Source: a phage
Reading direction: 5' to 3' (one strand)
Length of the DNA stretch: 46,785 nt
NCBI GenBank assembly: GCA_029337695.3
Contig: GCA_029337695.3_4851.1
The translations under genes were made by a program, and so were the position numbers. Below are positions 4,092 through 46,495 of this stretch, piece by piece (position 1 is the first letter of the stretch; every line of letters starts with the position of its first letter). Under the pieces are notes generated by a model, which saw only the letters and a program-made list of their open reading frames with translations, made no database searches and was not told the origin of the DNA.

Positions 4092-4149
4092 AATTCACCT
4101 CAGTCATATCTCGTTTAGATGACTTGAATCTACATCACCACCTCGCAGG

Positions 4150-11130: not shown

Positions 11131-12966
11131 ATGGCTACCATACCAACCAATAAACCAATTCCGTCAGAAGACCCGCGCGACCTGAAATTTAACGCCGGTA
11201 AAATTGACGAAGTTGTCAACTCTGATGCACACTACTACACCGACCGCTTCGGGGTGCGCAGATGGACGATTGCAGGATTTCAGTATACGGCAGAAGAAGC
11301 TATCCGTAATTATGGCTACATCACAATGGACAGTTTTGAAGATGGAGCGACACTGACGCTTCCCAATCAGACACTGCGTTATGAAGCAAATGGAGAATAT
11401 TATCGCTGGGATGGTGTGTTCCCGAAGGTTGTTCCAGCCGATTCCACTCCAGGAACAACTGGAGGAATTGGAAGTGGTGCGTGGGTAAGTGTGGGTGATG
11501 CGGCATTAAGAACACAGCTAAATACATTGGGATTAAATTCCTCTCTCGGCTCGAATGGAAATGCTATCTGGGGAAAGGGAGCGTTCGTTAGTAACAGTTA
11601 TGCAAAAAATAATGCCTTTTTCGGTGTTGATGCTGGTTCCTCAATAACCGGAAGCTCATCTGACGAAGCCATCGGAGCCGAGAATACGGGGTTGGGCCGC
11701 CGCGCTGGCGTTAACCTAACGTCTGGGCAGCGCAATGTACTGGTTGGTCATGAAGCGGGCGCATTGCTAACCACAGGTAGCTATAACGTTTATATTTATG
11801 CGCAAAGCTCTTCTTATGCCAATTATAAGACCGGTAGCTATAACGTAGTAATTGGATATAACGCAGGAAAGCTCCTTACATCTGGCGATCGCAACGTATC
11901 AGTGGGTACGGACGCAGGTTCGGCTACGACGACTGGTCGTGACAACGTCGCCGTAGGGCATGCTGCAATGCAAAACAACTCATCGGGTGGCGGAAATACT
12001 TATCTTGGCGCATTCGCAGGAACTGAAACTGGCTCTGGCGGAAACAACCTTGCGGCAGGTCGATCTGCTTTATTCCGTAATACTGACGGCGCTGGCAACG
12101 TTGCGTTAGGACGAGAGGCTGCATTAGGTGTATCGGGTACAGGTGCCTCTCCAAATAATATTGTTGCCATTGGTTATCAGGCTGGCTGGTCGCAGAACGG
12201 GTTAAATGGTGTTGTATTTTGCGGCATGCAGTCTGGCTATAAAGCAACAGTAATGAACGATACCGTGCTGCTCGGCAGGGCGTCAGGCTTTAATCTTACA
12301 ACTGGCAGTAATAACGTGTTTGTAGGCGCAGCAACGGGCGACAGCGAAACGACAGGCAGTCAGCTTGTTTATCTCGGCCACCAGTCGGGGCGATTCCTTA
12401 TAGACGGAACACCCGCCACGGGGAAATTAAACTGTGTATCCATTGGATATCAATCCCGTGTTGGTGGTAACCATGAAGTACAACTGGGCAACTCATCACA
12501 AACAGTTTACGTATATGGAACCGTACAGACTCGCTCTGATGAGCGAGACAAGGCAGACAAGCGAGAAATTGACGCTAATCTCGCTGTTTCTTTTGTTCGC
12601 GGAATTACGCCATATTTATATAAATGGGATTATCGTGACGATTATATTGAAGAATATGATGTAAAAGTCGGAGACGATGAAAATGGCAATCCTGTTTATG
12701 AAACCAGAGTTCGACATCTCGATAAGGATGGAAGCAAAAAAAGAACGCGTGACCACGCAGGATTCCTGGCTCAGCAGGTAAAAGAATTACTGGACCGACT
12801 TGGAATTGACTGCGGTATATATCAGGACCATTTAGTTAACGATGGTTGTGATGTGAAGACCCTTGCCTATGAGCAGGCGATACCTTTCATCACAAAAGCT
12901 ATGGACGTTGCTTTTTCTCGCCTCGACAACATTGAAGAACGACTTGGGAAACTTGAGAATCAATAA
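11131..12966 (+). CDS. tail fibre with C-terminal S74 intramolecular chaperone (autoproteolytic) domain
   Basis: 611 aa; central Gly/Ala-rich beta-helix-like repeats; C-terminal TRSDERDKADKREID has the Ser...Lys dyad spacing of peptidase S74 chaperone domains. Confidence 0.8.
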   Translation: MATIPTNKPIPSEDPRDLKFNAGKIDEVVNSDAHYYTDRFGVRRWTIAGFQYTAEEAIRNYGYITMDSFEDGATLTLPNQTLRYEANGEYYRWDGVFPKVVPADSTPGTTGGIGSGAWVSVGDAALRTQLNTLGLNSSLGSNGNAIWGKGAFVSNSYAKNNAFFGVDAGSSITGSSSDEAIGAENTGLGRRAGVNLTSGQRNVLVGHEAGALLTTGSYNVYIYAQSSSYANYKTGSYNVVIGYNAGKLLTSGDRNVSVGTDAGSATTTGRDNVAVGHAAMQNNSSGGGNTYLGAFAGTETGSGGNNLAAGRSALFRNTDGAGNVALGREAALGVSGTGASPNNIVAIGYQAGWSQNGLNGVVFCGMQSGYKATVMNDTVLLGRASGFNLTTGSNNVFVGAATGDSETTGSQLVYLGHQSGRFLIDGTPATGKLNCVSIGYQSRVGGNHEVQLGNSSQTVYVYGTVQTRSDERDKADKREIDANLAVSFVRGITPYLYKWDYRDDYIEEYDVKVGDDENGNPVYETRVRHLDKDGSKKRTRDHAGFLAQQVKELLDRLGIDCGIYQDHLVNDGCDVKTLAYEQAIPFITKAMDVAFSRLDNIEERLGKLENQ

Positions 12967-19194: not shown

Positions 19195-19269
19195 AGCAAC
19201 TAACCTTTGTTGATGTTTCTACGTCAGTTAGCTTATACTCAATCTACACCAACAATCAAGGGCCAATTT

Positions 19270-22790: not shown

Positions 22791-22940
22791 CCTGTTAGCA
22801 ACTATAGATAAAAAATAAAATTAACGCAACACAAAACAGGGCTAACCAGCAACAACAGCTACCACACCTAACAACTGGTCAGACCACCATCTCGTATCTG
22901 ATGTATGTGGATGGTTCCCGTCGTTCAATTTGCACTCGAT

Positions 22941-23299
22941 TTTTACCTAATTTACCGTATATTTATTGGTCAGTTTTTTGCGTAACTAATTGATTTATAT
23001 GGTTTTACCGGTTTTACCGGAGCTCTAAGGAGTATTTTCATCATTGAGAGTAGTAGTATATTAATTGGTCTAATTTTTAAATAACCCTAATAAAATCAAT
23101 ATATTAATATAAGAAAGTAACTTACTTACTTATATAGGATTTACCGGGTAAAACCGGTAACTCCTCCGCAGCCCGCGTCATTACTGGATTGATTTTTACC
23201 ACCTGTAGGTAAATACAGTAGTTTTTAAGTCAGGATTGTTTTTGTAAGATGTTGATTACCGGTACTTTATTTGAAAAACCGGGATTTACCGGGTTTTTG
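22941..23299. repeat. AT-rich iteron array (TTTACCGG-type), candidate origin or regulatory region
   Basis: About 600 bp without ORFs; copies at 22941-22960, tandem GTTTTACCGG x2 at 23001-23020, inverted TTACCGG/CCGGTAA at 23141-23160, palindrome 23195-23215, TTACCGGTA at 23255-23264, ACCGGG repeats at 23275-23299. Confidence 0.6.
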
Positions 23300-23370
23300 T
23301 GGTGTGATTGATAATCGCGCAATTAGTCATGTTTCACCAGAGCTCACTGATGCGACACCTGAAAATCATA

Positions 23371-23400
23371 TTGACGTAGAATCACAACTGATGTAGATTG
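23371..23400 (+). promoter_or_regulatory. putative early promoter with two inverted copies of the AATCTAC motif
   Basis: TTGACGTAGAAT (23371-23382) and TGATGTAGATTG (23389-23400) upstream of the first + early gene. Confidence 0.45.
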
Positions 23401-23429
23401 AACTCATCGAAACAAACGAGGGTGAAGAG

Positions 23430-23615
23430 ATGAAAGAGGAAAGCACGTACGACATCGACCAGATGAAGTTGTTCAGCGATATATGCATGGCATTGTCACA
23501 ACAGGTTCCAAGCCTTCCTGCTGACACGCGTTCAAATGCCATCATTGATGCAGCAAACATGATTTGCGAGGCTTATGCGATGAGTGAAGATGAATACAAG
23601 GCTTTGAAGAAATGA
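23430..23615 (+). CDS. hypothetical early protein
   Basis: 61-aa ORF, first of a coupled series of small ORFs. Confidence 0.4.
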   Translation: MKEESTYDIDQMKLFSDICMALSQQVPSLPADTRSNAIIDAANMICEAYAMSEDEYKALKK

Positions 23616-23707
23616 CAGGCGCAACACTCGAACTTATCGCCAGTCTGGTTATCGTGGCATTCATCATTATCGCAGTGGCAGTTTCCAAGTCGGGGTATAA
23701 GGAGTAA
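23612..23707 (+). CDS. small hydrophobic peptide (31 aa)
   Basis: MTGATLELIASLVIVAFIIIAVAVSKSGYKE; ATGA overlap with the upstream stop. Confidence 0.35.
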   Translation: MTGATLELIASLVIVAFIIIAVAVSKSGYKE

Positions 23708-23795
23708 CAAAATGAGCAACTGGCATAACGAACACATCATGCAGTGGTATCGCCGTCGCATTAAGGCAATCATTAACTCTTATGAGGTTTAACAA

Positions 23796-23978
23796 ATGGC
23801 AAAGACAATCTATCGCCGCGAGAAACTGGAACCAGAACTCGGTCACGTTGGCGCGCAGCACTTTATGAGCAAGCAGGCACGCAATGCAATGGAATCTACC
23901 CGCGTGAATCGCGTTGTGCGCGTGTTTAATGGCGAAGGTAAGCGCAGAGTAATGGATGAGCTGATTATCGTGTTCTGA
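23796..23978 (+). CDS. hypothetical protein
   Basis: 60-aa basic ORF. Confidence 0.4.
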   Translation: MAKTIYRREKLEPELGHVGAQHFMSKQARNAMESTRVNRVVRVFNGEGKRRVMDELIIVF

Positions 23979-27217: not shown

Positions 27218-27257
27218 TTGACCAATCTACACCGAGCGCATAGTATAATCTACATCA
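27218..27257 (+). promoter_or_regulatory. putative promoter (TTGACC ... TATAAT) with two direct AATCTACA motif copies
   Basis: TTGACC 27218-27223, AATCTACACC 27224-27233, TATAAT 27244-27249, AATCTACATCA 27247-27257. Confidence 0.5.
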
Positions 27258-33936: not shown

Positions 33937-33991
33937 TGATGTAGATACTATGCACCACCACTCAATCTACGTCAATACCTGTTGTGATAGA
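33937..33991 (+). promoter_or_regulatory. divergent promoter region with inverted AATCTAC motifs and extended -10 (TGTGATAGAAT)
   Basis: TGATGTAGATA (33937-33947) and AATCTACGTCAA (33963-33974), then TGTTGTGATAGAAT upstream of the endolysin. Confidence 0.5.
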
Positions 33992-36121: not shown

Positions 36122-36759
36122 TATTTAATCTCCAGTTCTTTTGCGCGAATTGCGCTGTCAATGATGTCCTGTAAATCTTGTTCGCGTGATTTGTGTCCGC
36201 GCTCGCCAGCTTGCAACGCCTTCTTGATCAAATGCTGCAATGCTGGGTTGGTGACATTCCACGCCATGAGCACGTCATACACGTCAACAAAAATACCAGG
36301 CCTAATTTCGTGCAGGTATTTGTTTCCAAGTTGCGCCTCATGCCATTTCCCGTCGATGTGGGCCTCGCCAACTTTAACTGGCTTGCATCGGCAATTGGTG
36401 TGACCAAAGGTTGGATATCCTTCAGGCAAGAAATCACCAACAAATGATTTGGTGCTTGCAATGAACCCGCCTCGCTTCACATCCGCTTCCGGTGCGCCAA
36501 TGCATTCATTGAGATCTTGTTCGTCGTCTGCTACTGGCTCACGAATGCCAACTAAAAACCAATTCTCATTATTGCCTATGAAATATGTGTTCTTTTTGTT
36601 TGGCTCCCACATGGTTGCATGAGTTTCCAGTTTTTCGCACCACGCTAAGCGACCATCCATTTTGTGTCGTATTGCTAAGCGCACATTTGCTGGCGCTCCA
36701 ACAAAATCGCAGGCGCTACCTTTAAGCAATCTGTATCTTGTTGTCATTTCTCTCTCCAC
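36121..36759 (-). CDS. hypothetical protein with DUF3310-like C-terminal region
   Basis: 212 aa; C-terminal FVDVYDVLMAWNVTNPALQHLIKKALQAGERGHKSREQDLQDIIDSAIR resembles DUF3310; N-terminal half unassigned. Confidence 0.4.
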   Translation of the reverse strand: MEREMTTRYRLLKGSACDFVGAPANVRLAIRHKMDGRLAWCEKLETHATMWEPNKKNTYFIGNNENWFLVGIREPVADDEQDLNECIGAPEADVKRGGFIASTKSFVGDFLPEGYPTFGHTNCRCKPVKVGEAHIDGKWHEAQLGNKYLHEIRPGIFVDVYDVLMAWNVTNPALQHLIKKALQAGERGHKSREQDLQDIIDSAIRAKELEIK

Positions 36760-37004
36760 TTAATCATCTCGTGTCGCGGCATTGTGACGCGGTTGTATTC
36801 ATCAACATTAAAATTCGCCCGAATCAAATCATACATATCATCTTTAGGCATATCAGCCAGCGCCACATAGCAACGGGCAAAGTAGCGAACATCACGGAGT
36901 GTCAGCGGCTGCCGCTTCTCCACAATGCTGGTGATAATGTCCATCGGCTCTCGTCGTGGTCTTGGCATATTTACTACTCCTTTTCGAAAATTATTGTTGA
37001 CCAA
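36744..37004 (-). CDS. hypothetical protein
   Basis: 86-aa ORF, first gene of the minus operon next to the divergent promoter. Confidence 0.4.
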   Translation of the reverse strand: MVNNNFRKGVVNMPRPRREPMDIITSIVEKRQPLTLRDVRYFARCYVALADMPKDDMYDLIRANFNVDEYNRVTMPRHEMIKWREK

Positions 37005-37041
37005 TCTACATCATTTAGTCAATACTTATTGACGTAGATTG
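36998..37041 (+). promoter_or_regulatory. promoter (TTGACC-17 bp-AATACT) with motif in the spacer and an inverted copy downstream
   Basis: TTGACCAATCTACATCA (36998-37014), -10 AATACT (37021-37026), inverted TTGACGTAGATTG (37029-37041). Confidence 0.55.
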
Positions 37042-37067
37042 TACCACAACGGAAAAGGTGATGTGGA

Positions 37068-37271
37068 ATGAGTGCAGAAAAAGTAATAACAGAAAGATGT
37101 GAGTATTTACGCTCCATGCTTGAAGCTCGCGGAGTTAGCGCTGAAGACATTGACCTATGTCTTACGCACCTCACAAACGCGGTCCTTGAGGGATATCATC
37201 AGGGGCAGGTAGATTACTCGACTGGGGTGCTTCCTGAACTACTGAGAATGGCAACGGTTGGTAAATTTTGA
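37068..37271 (+). CDS. hypothetical protein
   Basis: 67-aa ORF, first of a series of small early-type genes. Confidence 0.4.
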   Translation: MSAEKVITERCEYLRSMLEARGVSAEDIDLCLTHLTNAVLEGYHQGQVDYSTGVLPELLRMATVGKF

Positions 37272-37476
37272 GGAATACACAATGACAACTGACGAATTGT
37301 ACGAAAAATCATTAATTCAGCGACTGAATGAAGTCGAGCGTACTCGCGAATGGCTGGAATGCGAGCTGCGTGAGGTGCGTAACCGTCTGCAACGCAAACG
37401 CAGTCAGCAGAAAGATGTTATCGACTGGTCAGGTGATACGCCGAAATTTAATAATCTTGGGGAGTGGATAAAATGA
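37258..37476 (+). CDS. hypothetical coiled-coil protein
   Basis: 72-aa ORF. Confidence 0.4.
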   Translation: MVNFEEYTMTTDELYEKSLIQRLNEVERTREWLECELREVRNRLQRKRSQQKDVIDWSGDTPKFNNLGEWIK

Positions 37477-37724
37477 CAACGCCACATATGCCGATGATGA
37501 ATGAACATGGATTCTTGAGCTGCCCATTCTGTGGTTGTGATGATGTTGGTATTGCCATAGATGAGGATGGGTGGGAATACATAGAATGCGGGGATTGTTA
37601 TTGCCGTACAGACGCATTCCGTAACAGAGAACTAATGACTAAGTCATGGAATACTCGCAACGGACACCTATACACCACAGAAGACTTCAATCAGGCAGCA
37701 GAGGAACGCGATCATGGACTATAA
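37464..37724 (+). CDS. Lar-family restriction alleviation protein (zinc-ribbon)
   Basis: LSCPFCGCDDVGIAIDEDGWEYIECGDCYC...WNTRNG fits the Lar pattern (CPFCG...C..C...WN.R). Confidence 0.55.
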   Translation: MDKMTTPHMPMMNEHGFLSCPFCGCDDVGIAIDEDGWEYIECGDCYCRTDAFRNRELMTKSWNTRNGHLYTTEDFNQAAEERDHGL

Positions 37725-38202
37725 ATCACAAATTATGCGCGTGATTATGATGCATCCCGGCGCAACGCGTGCATATATTGAAAAGCATTGCGGAGGAAAG
37801 CATTCAAGCACCACGACGCATCGTTTGCATGAGATGCTTGCGCTTGGCTTTATTCGTCGCGAGAAGTCAGTGATTCGTGGCGGTAAGTGGCAGTATAAAT
37901 ATTTCATCTCTGAGGACGCGGCAGGTATTGATGATGCGATTAAGTGTCATTTGCTTGGTAACGCTGGCGCAGAGGTGAAAGAAATCATCGCGGCCACTGG
38001 CATTGACTACAGAATCGCGAAAAGCCGCATTCGCATTATGTTTCATAACGGCGATGTGACGCGAAGCTATGACCACCACAAGAAATTGTGGCGTTACTCA
38101 TGGCATGAAAAGGAAATTAACGTCAGCAACCTGTTCAATTCACTTCTTCGCAACGCAAGAGGTCGTCATGGGAAAAGCGAAACGCAAGAAGAAAGAGTAT
38201 GA
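37714..38202 (+). CDS. putative winged-helix DNA-binding protein
   Basis: 162 aa with two helix-turn-helix-like segments and a basic C-terminus. Confidence 0.4.
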   Translation: MDYKSQIMRVIMMHPGATRAYIEKHCGGKHSSTTTHRLHEMLALGFIRREKSVIRGGKWQYKYFISEDAAGIDDAIKCHLLGNAGAEVKEIIAATGIDYRIAKSRIRIMFHNGDVTRSYDHHKKLWRYSWHEKEINVSNLFNSLLRNARGRHGKSETQEERV

Positions 38203-38327
38203 GCCATTGCCACCATGCGAAATGTCAGGAATGCCGCAGCAGGAGGATGTGATTCTCACCGAAGCTGAGTGGCGAAAGGTGGCAAGAGTGCAAATCATGT
38301 TCCGCAAACTTGCTTAGGATGTACTAA

Positions 38328-38750
38328 ATGAGATGGGCTATTAAGCATAAATCCGGCAGAACTCTGTTTATAACATCAGATGAGTTTATTGCCAATAACC
38401 GTAGAAAGATGGGCTGGATAGTGGAGGGAGTGAAAATGACGAGTAGAGAGCAGTTTGAGGTAAGCTGGTTGCGACGAGGAGGTGAGGAATCAGACCTTGT
38501 TCGTCACGCTGAAAATCACCACGAGGCTGGTAGTGGTAATGTTGGTGGTCAGTACGTAATTGATGATGTCCAAGGGCACTGGCAAACGTGGCAGGCATCA
38601 CGCGAAGCAATTGAGATTGAATTGCTACCAACAACAGAGGTTCACCCATTCGGCCCGAGCGCAGCAAAAATGTTTTGTGAGCTGCATAAAAACACCGTCG
38701 CAGAATGCGCAAAGTCCATCCTCGCCGCAGGTCTGAAAGTTAAAAGTTAA
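38328..38750 (+). CDS. hypothetical protein
   Basis: 140-aa ORF. Confidence 0.4.
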   Translation: MRWAIKHKSGRTLFITSDEFIANNRRKMGWIVEGVKMTSREQFEVSWLRRGGEESDLVRHAENHHEAGSGNVGGQYVIDDVQGHWQTWQASREAIEIELLPTTEVHPFGPSAAKMFCELHKNTVAECAKSILAAGLKVKS

Positions 38751-39083
38751 AGGTGAAAAAATGATTATCCAACTAAACGACATTATGAAAGCAGATATTA
38801 TTCAGCTTGAAGATTATGACATGCAACTGGCGTTTGAAATCGAAACTGTTGAACGCCAACTGCAATATGCGGATAAGAAGAATGACCGCGTCTGACATGA
38901 GAAAGCGCTTAAGGCACGCGACCACATGAAGCGCACACGAGCACTAATCAAAACTAGATTGGATAAGCTGTATTTTGGCGAGGAAAGGATGATTCACGGA
39001 GCTATTCTGGCGCAAATCCGTAAGGAAATGCCTATTGGCAAGTTCATGTCTTACGTTCACCGCGCAAAACAGGAGGCTGGGTT

Positions 39084-39272
39084 ATGAGCGAACCAAAATT
39101 TCCAGAATTGCCAGTGGAGGTTCAGGTTGCATTGATTAATGCAGCAAGTGCAATGGCGACAAAGAAGATTGAGGCAATAGGCAGTGATTACAACAGGAAC
39201 ATAGACTGGTTTCAGAGGGAGTATCAAAAAATCTGCGACGCACTCTACAAAGAAAACAGGGGTAGACCATGA
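39084..39272 (+). CDS. hypothetical protein
   Basis: 62-aa ORF with a GGAGG RBS. Confidence 0.4.
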   Translation: MSEPKFPELPVEVQVALINAASAMATKKIEAIGSDYNRNIDWFQREYQKICDALYKENRGRP

Positions 39273-39609
39273 TTCCATTGCTTTGGATATTATCAGCCTA
39301 CGCATTCGCGCGGGTATTTGAGGCTGATACTCTGTACCAGATGATTTGCTATGGCGCTCTGTTCTGCCTGTCAGGTGCTGCGCTTGCATTTATGGATGAT
39401 GTGATTTCAGACTAACTCCGTATATCTTTTGTTCATCATGGGCTGCTATCATTTAATCAGGAGGTAGCCCATGAATATAATCCCTATCACTTACTTTCTC
39501 ACGCTATACGCACTCACCAATTCGCCATTGTTTGCACTGGCTACCGCCTCATGGTGCTATATCTCCCTGTGTTATAATTCGACCACAAACTAACCGTGGA
39601 GAGTTAACC

Positions 39610-41489
<1,880 letters not shown>

Positions 41490-45867: not shown

Positions 45868-45915
45868 CAGGAATATGCTAAAATCATGCTAATCAAACAA
45901 CAGGAGATTTAAGCA

Positions 45916-46056
45916 TGGTTAAGTGCATCAAGAAAAATGGGTCGACGAATGGCCCTTCTCGTTCTCGCGCTACTGGCAATACCAAAACTGGCGGCAAAAC
46001 TGGCGCAGTGAAGCCAAACGGCTCCACCCGCTCACCATCGCGCGGTAAGAAATAAT
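45916..46056 (+). CDS. small basic low-complexity protein (46 aa)
   Basis: MVKCIKKNGSTNGPSRSRATGNTKTGGKTGAVKPNGSTRSPSRGKK, with a GGAG RBS. Confidence 0.35.
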
Positions 46057-46495
46057 GTTCGGCGCAGACGTTGCCATCATGATCATGTATGCGCTTGGTT
46101 TTGCCTGCACGGGCATGGTCGCGTTTCTGGTGTTCATTCCGGCAATGGTGATGTCTGTGTATCTTGGATGGGTGCTTGTTGATTCATTTCCCGCCGAATA
46201 TCTGTATTACCTTGCGCAGTCTATGGTCTGGTTGTTCCCGGCTATCGCACTGCGCAAAAGTACAAAGATGGCGCTCTGCGCGCTGACGATGAGCCTTTAC
46301 GAATGGCTGGTAGCGATAGAGTCATTCGTATGGGAATTTATCACGCCTGTAGAAACGCCGCTTCATGCGCAGTACGCATTTATTATTATCGGCATCCATC
46401 TGTTCATCCTTTCCATCACTTTTAAATGGGGCGGCGAAATTGGACATTATTCTTGGCGTGGTCGCCATTGTTTTTTCGCTGATTCAAATCTATAA
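46055..46495 (+). CDS. polytopic membrane protein
   Basis: 146 aa with about four hydrophobic helices; ATGA overlap with the previous ORF. Confidence 0.45.
   Translation: MFGADVAIMIMYALGFACTGMVAFLVFIPAMVMSVYLGWVLVDSFPAEYLYYLAQSMVWLFPAIALRKSTKMALCALTMSLYEWLVAIESFVWEFITPVETPLHAQYAFIIIGIHLFILSITFKWGGEIGHYSWRGRHCFFADSNL

Follow-up and report, generated by a model that had tools for sequence, protein, structure and literature searches.

Ral, a small protein encoded by phage lambda, relieves type IA restriction and promotes modification; it is a functional analogue of Lar, but to our knowledge it is not a zinc ribbon, no sequence relationship is expected, and its likeness to the activity proposed here is one of analogy only. 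Lar, also named RalR (b1348), of the Escherichia coli K-12 Rac prophage is a small zinc ribbon with four cysteines (CPFCGC...CxxC...WN(K/T)R) encoded in a phage accessory region. The restriction-alleviation phenotype of Rac Lar is genetic (King and Murray 1995, as cited in PMC4041452), and RalR has been described as a non-specific DNase/endonuclease and a type I toxin (PMC4041452). In this study a phage DNA of 46,785 bp (GenBank assembly GCA_029337695.3, contig GCA_029337695.3_4851.1; called the window, that is, the whole stretch analysed) was examined for a cluster of small plus-strand genes at 37068–39593 that includes a gene for a Lar-like protein. With a probability of roughly 0.7, as judged from comparative sequence analysis, this cluster is a conserved, non-essential accessory operon of Skatevirus/Shuimuvirus-like siphophages, including a Lar/RalR-family gene of predicted anti-restriction role.

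The window was found to comprise the whole genome, circularly permuted, of a siphophage of the Skatevirus/Shuimuvirus type, which aligned nearly end-to-end with the Salmonella phages IME207 and Seszw_1 at about 85–94% nucleotide identity. The cluster is flanked on one side by the lysis cassette with a leftward small-gene block, and on the other by the head genes, which begin at 39610 with a DUF2213/phrog_760 protein labelled "coat protein" in relatives. Over 100 phage entries in public databases carry this cluster in annotated form, the names "Lar-like" and "MarR" included; that it is accessory and holds a gene of the Lar family can already be read from public annotation. Mildly novel points are the hypervariable, swapped core of the Lar-like protein, a nonsense-split gene, and a promoter and a hairpin around the last peptide gene.

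Compared with the window protein of 83 aa, RalR is shorter (64 aa) and lacks both a conserved N-terminal leader of 11–16 residues and an invariant C-terminal tail of 20 residues (NGHLYTxxDFNQAAEERDxGL). RalR is encoded in a cryptic prophage, whereas the Lar-like gene of the window belongs to a virulent siphophage. The annotated Lar-like genes of Skatevirus, Shuimuvirus and Roufvirus phages (IME207 gp32, Skate gp29, Seszw_1 gp06, Bas77_0030, Bas81, BS5) share with the window the same operon and the same conserved termini; like the window gene, they follow a gene for a coiled-coil protein and overlap a winged-helix gene by 11 nt. The window allele was only 52–58% identical at the amino acid level to those of the closest genomes, the best matches being found in Bas81 (84%), BS5 (83%) and a metagenomic cluster (92%). 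The window lacks the gene of about 72 aa that precedes the Lar-like gene in IME207 (gp31), Seszw (gene 5) and Skate, and no second Lar-like gene, such as gp88 of IME207, was found elsewhere in the window. The IME207 counterparts of these genes, missing at the 37476/37473 junction of the window and elsewhere, lie at 11956–12177 and 45911–46099.

The family assignment of the Lar-like protein was supported by several comparisons. The Pfam profile PF14354 matched with 37.9 bits (gathering threshold 28.6; E 2.1e-9), residues 15–63 aligning to positions 4–58 of the 58 profile positions, and all 40 of the 40 full-length homologues carry a precomputed PF14354 domain. A match to phrog_599, "Lar-like restriction alleviation protein", was obtained with E 1.5e-13. 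In BLASTP with K-12 Lar/RalR the identity was 33% over 46 aa (E 3e-7), with both CxxC knuckles and the WNxR motif aligned, and hhalign of a profile of 18 Lar-like homologues with RalR gave a probability of 97.7%. In the window protein the pattern reads CPFCG...CxxC...WNTR; among the 18 aligned homologues C17, C20 and C39 are conserved in at least 90%, C42 and W59-N60-T61-R62 are invariant, and these residues align to C9, C12, C29, C32 and W50-N-K-R53 of RalR.

Several results weigh against so simple an assignment. With the NCBIfam model TIGR03655 (anti_R_Lar) the protein scored 37.4, marginally (2 bits) under the cutoff of 39.6, and with the RalR equivalog NF007260 it stayed far below the cutoff (19.2 against 113). 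Moreover, some curators label an orthologue of the Lar-like protein "zinc-binding domain of primase-helicase", which shows that zinc ribbons attract unspecific matches. A sequence search of solved structures with the Lar-like protein gave nothing significant (best E 0.077). Taken together, the sequence comparisons identify the protein as a real member of the Lar/RalR zinc-ribbon family that is not an orthologue of RalR. The earlier note, made from the sequence alone, had assigned an open reading frame (ORF) at 37464–37724 to the Lar family and named failure in a profile search among the grounds for refuting it; since Pfam, BLASTP and hhalign all support the family, the assignment stands, and only the start has to be moved, from the upstream GTG at 37464 to the ATG at 37473, where the homologues begin.

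When the window protein was aligned with up to 40 homologues, each of them from a contig of this phage group, the first 21 and the last 25 residues proved nearly invariant, while residues 22–58, between and around the knuckles, were hypervariable; the mean column entropies of the N-terminus, core and C-terminus were 0.56, 2.26 and 0.45 bits, respectively. The same was seen at the nucleotide level, where the gene ends were 74–91% identical to the alleles of IME207, Seszw_1, Skate, Bas77, Bas80, LPSTLL and Akira, and the central 111 nt (37536–37646, codons 22–58) only 50–56% identical to the alleles of close relatives. The core shared 71% identity with its counterpart in the distant Aeromonas phage pIS4-A, whose gene was only 46% identical in the N-terminal part. 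In the genomes where the Lar-like proteins were 52–58% identical, the neighbouring cluster proteins were 81–100% identical. These data indicate that the core is an internal cassette, presumably exchanged across phage genera, which would fit a partner-specific function without proving one. Existing annotations of the gene do not mention this architecture of conserved ends and swapped core, which provides a concrete handle on specificity in a family whose type member has been called a restriction alleviator in one description and a DNase toxin in another.

Dispensability of the cluster was assessed in phage seszw, which is about 90% identical to the window and which was subjected to CRISPR-based genome reduction with reported loss of a large fragment, "genes 3-10" (PMC9825161). 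Deletions were read from four deposited seszw mutant genomes and numbered by locus tags (for the correspondence with the window genes see Table 1; seszw gene 5 is absent from the window). Gene 7 was missing from mutant seszw_20S, genes 3 and 7 from seszw_240L, genes 7 and 9 from seszw_280L, and genes 6, 7 and 10 from seszw_160L. Since these viable mutants lack genes 3, 6, 7, 9 and 10, at least five of the ten cluster orthologues, including both with family assignments (Lar-like and winged helix), are dispensable on the laboratory Salmonella host, in agreement with the designation of the cluster as accessory in the earlier note. Natural variation was also observed: in IME207 the winged-helix gene is split in two, in Akira it is absent, phage 64795_sal3 has both the Lar-like and the winged-helix gene replaced by a different one, and the Skate cluster holds an inserted HNH endonuclease.

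The cluster lies downstream of a 63-bp divergent control region between the genes starting at 36968 and 37068, and the motif-bearing promoter predicted upstream of the cluster from the sequence alone was found there. The element noted previously, AATCTAC, occurs 14 times in the window (expected 4.07 ± 2.18), but TCTACRYCA describes it better: 1.03 ± 1.09 copies would be expected, 14 are present, and not one of 100 shuffles had as many. Its copies start at 2734, 4129, 16839, 19218, 19243, 23372, 23389, 27249 (with a variant at 27226), 33937, 33966, 37005, 37030, 45827 and 45858. In the control region two inverted copies are present (37005–37013 on the plus strand and 37030–37038 on the minus strand), together with a rightward sigma-70-like candidate promoter (TTGACC at 36997–37002, an 18-nt spacer and AATACT at 37021–37026) and an overlapping leftward candidate (TTGACT at 37022–37017, an 18-nt spacer and AACAAT at 36998–36993). 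Against these promoter assignments stands the density of consensus matches, which was close to chance (12 found, 7.8 expected), and both promoters are therefore only inferred. In ten related loci the control region contained two motif copies, except for three Roufvirus-type loci with one exact copy, a GTAGATT half-site and diverged flanks.

Elsewhere in the window, paired copies in direct or inverted orientation, 17–33 bp apart, overlap the core-promoter regions of the primase gene (19218/19243), of the small genes downstream of the terminase (27226 variant/27249), of the lysis and leftward units (33937/33966) and of a further divergent junction (45827/45858). Upstream of the extended -10 promoters that serve the major-tail unit (2734) and the tape-measure unit (4129), single copies were found at a distance of about 50 bp. 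By its number and placement TCTACRYCA is a predicted genome-wide regulatory element, and the cluster promoter would belong to the paired class together with the primase promoter. One regulator could repress the paired promoter class and activate the single-copy class. The ten genes of the cluster would be read rightward from the sigma-70-type promoter in the divergent control region; the one pointer to their early expression is circumstantial, namely the paired promoter architecture shared with the primase promoter.

The gene following the Lar-like gene encodes a protein of 162 aa for which the earlier note had suggested a winged-helix-like fold. Over its full length it matches phrog_1687 ("MarR family"). 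In an AlphaFold2 (AF2) model built from a shallow alignment, with a mean pLDDT of 49, residues 1–66 formed an a1-a2-a3-b-b arrangement at pLDDT 64–83, the rest, with a second, weaker helix-turn-helix-like half, being below 50. A Foldseek search of the PDB with this model returned winged-helix structures for all of the top 50 matches, with probabilities of about 1.0 and E values from 3.9e-3 to 4e-2, none being at or below 1e-3; the nearest folds were the winged helices of HosA, MexR, a ROK repressor and TFE, with rmsd of 1.5–2.5 Å over 65–69 columns. In these respects a winged-helix-like N-terminal domain is a reasonable prediction from the model, which leaves the suggested fold plausible for residues 1–66. 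Residues 1–66 share the predicted a1-a2-a3-wing topology with MarR-type regulators, but no counterpart of their dimerisation helices is evident in the model, and all curated Pfam and NCBIfam winged-helix profiles scored below threshold. Membership in MarR itself was rejected, because MarR_2 gave 18.3 against 27 and a 38%-identical homologue also remained below threshold (19.1 and 17.5). A sequence search of solved structures gave no match for this protein. A Ren-like exclusion function for the second half was likewise discarded, the phrog_142 match being partial (E 8.3e-6, residues 62–135) and BLASTP with lambda Ren giving E 5.8, and P0181, a KH-domain protein among the hits in representative proteins, was judged spurious, a helix-turn-helix/GxxG look-alike. 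An exhaustive search of 1.84 billion representative proteins yielded relatives in only nine clusters, all from this phage group, to which the family is therefore confined.

What the Lar-like protein does we infer from homology. Most likely it would weaken the restriction that type I (family IA) systems exert on the unmodified genome as it enters, either by acting on the restriction-modification (RM) complex, as reported for Rac Lar, or by nicking DNA and thereby eliciting restriction alleviation in the host, RalR being a DNase; the conserved termini flanking a core exchanged between phages suggest a swappable specificity region. A doubtful but possible alternative is that the protein has nothing to do with restriction and is a small DNase or toxin like RalR, or a generic zinc-ribbon DNA or protein binder serving takeover or regulation, with a label carried over from one phenotype of 1995. 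The type member is after all a non-specific endonuclease toxin (PMC4041452), the family match spans only the zinc ribbon of about 48 residues, and the invariant 20-residue tail is an addition of this phage group. The same alternative is favoured by published data on relatives that weigh against an anti-restriction role: the BASEL authors describe small siphoviruses, including the Skatevirus phages Bas77–81, as "markedly sensitive to RM systems", the efficiencies of plating of Bas77–80 being 0.02–0.2 with EcoKI (one site per genome, a 5- to 50-fold restriction), 1e-4 to 1e-3 with the type I system EcoCFT_I (2–3 sites, about 1000-fold or more) and 1e-5 to 1e-7 with type II and III enzymes. Bas77 and Bas80, the two checked of Bas77–80, carry an annotated Lar-like gene in the orthologous position. 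A linear genome with a single site is attacked only weakly by type I enzymes, so that the plating of Bas77–80 neither proves nor excludes a Lar effect; since these phages are restricted despite their Lar-like alleles, any protection would be partial or specific to other systems. For a role in restriction speaks the family name, which rests on a phenotype that King and Murray (1995, as cited in PMC4041452) described for Rac Lar by genetics. A hypervariable core in nearly identical phages also fits a partner-specific arms race better than a non-specific nuclease, and the Rfam scan of the window, which gave one tRNA only, contained no RalA-like antitoxin RNA of the kind expected beside a RalR-like toxin, the presence of a RalA model in Rfam not having been checked. 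Avoidance of type IA sites was not found in the window (EcoKI 5 against about 5.6 expected, EcoBI 22 against 10.5 ± 3.6), a result that is not decisive either way. As a separate observation, EcoBI-type sites (TGA N8 TGCT) are over-represented window-wide, none of 100 dinucleotide-preserving shuffles reaching 22. Going beyond the anti-restriction reading, one may imagine the 37-residue core as a swappable specificity cassette between invariant termini, exchanged between Salmonella/E. coli and Aeromonas/Klebsiella phages, each allele neutralising a different host target (e.g., type I families or another defence), and the operon in its entirety as an island of early anti-defence genes, which a phage regulator would silence by binding to the paired TCTACRYCA copies across the core promoter, the same regulator activating the tail promoters through single sites near -50; in this complete form the proposal is speculative and unlikely.

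A different question is when the cluster is expressed and who reads its control region. The genes could be late accessory genes co-transcribed with the head genes, neither early nor anti-defence, with the peptides and small proteins serving morphogenesis or the timing of lysis. The cluster is on the same strand as the abutting head operon, no terminator-like site was found on the plus strand in 38034–40500, so that none is recognisable between the two, and AATCTAC also precedes late tail and lysis units. We nevertheless regard late expression as improbable, for the head operon retains an invariant predicted extended -10 promoter of its own, the cluster promoter has paired, core-overlapping motifs as at the primase gene and not the tail-type single site at about -50 with an extended -10, five of the genes can be deleted without loss of viability, and gene content differs among relatives. 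As to the regulator, the earlier note had put forward the winged-helix protein as the one that recognises AATCTAC/TCTACRYCA and so controls the phage promoters. It is the only cluster protein with a predicted DNA-binding-type fold and is encoded beside a control region with two motif copies. Its gene, however, is missing from all four seszw mutants examined, as early as transfer 20, while the phage still grows, and it is split in IME207; Akira and 64795_sal3, which lack the gene, keep 16 and 12 copies of TCTACRYCA, respectively (about 1.4 expected), and the motif is found at promoters of essential genes (major tail at 2734, tape measure at 4129, primase at 19218/19243, lysis at 33966). Because the motif serves essential genes and persists without the winged-helix gene, and because deletion mutants grow, the protein is not a dedicated essential regulator; its role as an essential activator is largely refuted, any part of it in reading the motif appears very improbable, and it is a lineage-restricted, dispensable protein of DNA-binding type. 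A candidate for the motif regulator is instead the divergently encoded 74-aa protein (phrog_14963), conserved in every relative with 52–97% identity, Roufvirus included, whose gene opens the leftward unit of small genes and has its control region in common with the cluster.

The features of the cluster and its surroundings are collected in Table 1. Eleven small plus-strand ORFs were found, amounting to ten genes, because two of them are the N- and C-terminal halves of one phrog_14549 gene; the approximately ten ORFs predicted from the sequence are thus all present, with two of them merged, and the cluster ends at 39593 and not at 39500, as first delimited. The genes are tightly packed, several overlapping their neighbours by 4–35 nt, and the stop of gene 2 overlaps the start of the Lar-like gene (ATGA). 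Every cluster ORF showed, against 3–11 non-identical relatives, the excess of substitutions at third codon positions typical of coding sequence, uniformly across ORFs, the counts being drawn from related sequences and not from independent events. All ORFs except the last match a PHROG family over essentially their full length.

Table 1. Features of the small-gene cluster and its surroundings in the window (substitutions are counts at codon positions 1/2/3; seszw gene, number of the orthologue in phage seszw).
Feature	Coordinates	Strand	seszw gene	Substitutions	Family, evidence and remarks
Divergent 74-aa gene	36744–36968	-		15/12/75	phrog_14963; Shine-Dalgarno AAGGAG before the ATG at 36968
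Divergent control region	36993–37067				consensus promoter scan and motif statistics
Gene 1, 67 aa	37068–37271	+	3		phrog_27614
Gene 2, 64 aa, coiled-coil-like	37282–37476	+	4	57/4/173	phrog_15697
Lar/RalR-family zinc ribbon, 83 aa	37473–37724	+	6		PF14354, phrog_599
Winged-helix-like protein, 162 aa	37714–38202	+	7		phrog_1687 "MarR family"; 11-nt overlap with the Lar-like gene
Gene 5, 49 aa	38168–38317	+	8 (49/58-aa gene)	13/1/45	phrog_17117; 35-nt overlap with the preceding gene
Gene 6, 140 aa	38328–38750	+	9		phrog_343; precomputed PF26207 domain
Gene 7, 108 codons	38761–39087	+	10	55/18/248	phrog_14549; in-frame TGA
Gene 8, 62 aa	39084–39272	+			phrog_16865; ATGA overlap with each neighbour
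Gene 9, 48-aa hydrophobic peptide	39269–39415	+	11	15/7/67	phrog_18423; GRAVY 1.11
RNA hairpin	39436–39474	+			dG -20.4 kcal/mol, z -3.4; the Shine-Dalgarno 3' end and the AUG of gene 10 are paired in it
Gene 10, 40-aa hydrophobic peptide	39471–39593	+		5/0/30	no PHROG match; GRAVY 0.74; strong Shine-Dalgarno AGGAGG
Extended -10 promoter element TGTTATAAT	39570–39578	+			consensus match inside the 3' half of gene 10

Gene 2 encodes a protein that is 89–95% identical in close relatives and 52% identical in Roufvirus, and of the loci compared only those of IME207, Bas77 and Bas80 contain gene 8. No PADLOC-DB family matched any of the ten cluster proteins at E ≤ 0.01. The other genes of the cluster are putative small host-interaction genes, including those of two predicted membrane peptides.

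Gene 7 is split by an in-frame TGA at 38893–38895 (codon 45), where TGG is found in 15 of 15 related loci. The resulting ORFs, 38761–38895 and 38926–39087, are in the same frame and match positions 1–44 and 56–108 of phrog_14549, respectively. A TGA followed by C is a leaky stop context in which insertion of tryptophan is possible; since the base after the TGA of gene 7 is C, some full-length protein may still be made by read-through. Alternatively, the TGA could be a sequencing error.

The 140-aa protein encoded by gene 6 is a mosaic, with conserved SREQFE, WQxWQASR and AGLKVK blocks and hypervariable inserts between them, and has 623 homologues, including some on E. coli, Salmonella and Cronobacter chromosomes. 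In its AF2 model (mean pLDDT 65.8) only an N-terminal beta-beta-alpha-beta module of 36 residues was confident, and a fold search of BFVD matched only uncharacterised orthologues.

The two short hydrophobic peptides singled out in the earlier note, those of genes 9 and 10, are both coding and conserved. The gene 9 peptide is 92–100% identical across Skatevirus-like relatives. Gene 10 is annotated in Skate, Bas77 and Bas80, its peptide is 56% identical in Roufvirus and a Klebsiella phage, and 28 synonymous against 5 non-synonymous codon changes were counted. A spurious ORF lying over a promoter was considered for gene 10 and ruled out by this clearly coding substitution pattern, a promoter element also being located inside it. 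This element, the perfect extended -10 sequence TGTTATAAT, is invariant in 11 of 11 aligned loci, that of the distantly related Klebsiella phage among them, whereas third positions around it vary; because of this invariance within gene 10, the head operon probably has its own promoter embedded there.

The spacer before gene 10 is nearly invariant among close relatives and contains the predicted hairpin listed in Table 1. A hairpin of different sequence at the same position was found in the Klebsiella phage VLCpiS13b (z -4.2), which suggests translational control of the gene 10 peptide.

The practical value of the cluster is modest, as a compact and well-delimited set of ten dispensable genes. 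The phage group offers the seszw deletion-mutant library and the standardised defence phenotyping of Bas77–81 in the BASEL collection, with which roles in anti-restriction or in other host interactions could be tested quickly.

The single tRNA gene of the window is a tRNA-Met (CAT) at 2199–2275 on the minus strand, and the annotation of phage Akira has one too. Between the leftward helicase/primase operon and a rightward small-gene cluster, about 1 kb (22800–23800) holds no convincing leftward-strand ORF of at least 55 aa, and a similar gap is present in relatives. This ORF-poor stretch contains the direct TCTACRYCA pair at 23372/23389, about 0.6 kb from the nearest leftward ORF, and may be an origin or a regulatory region.

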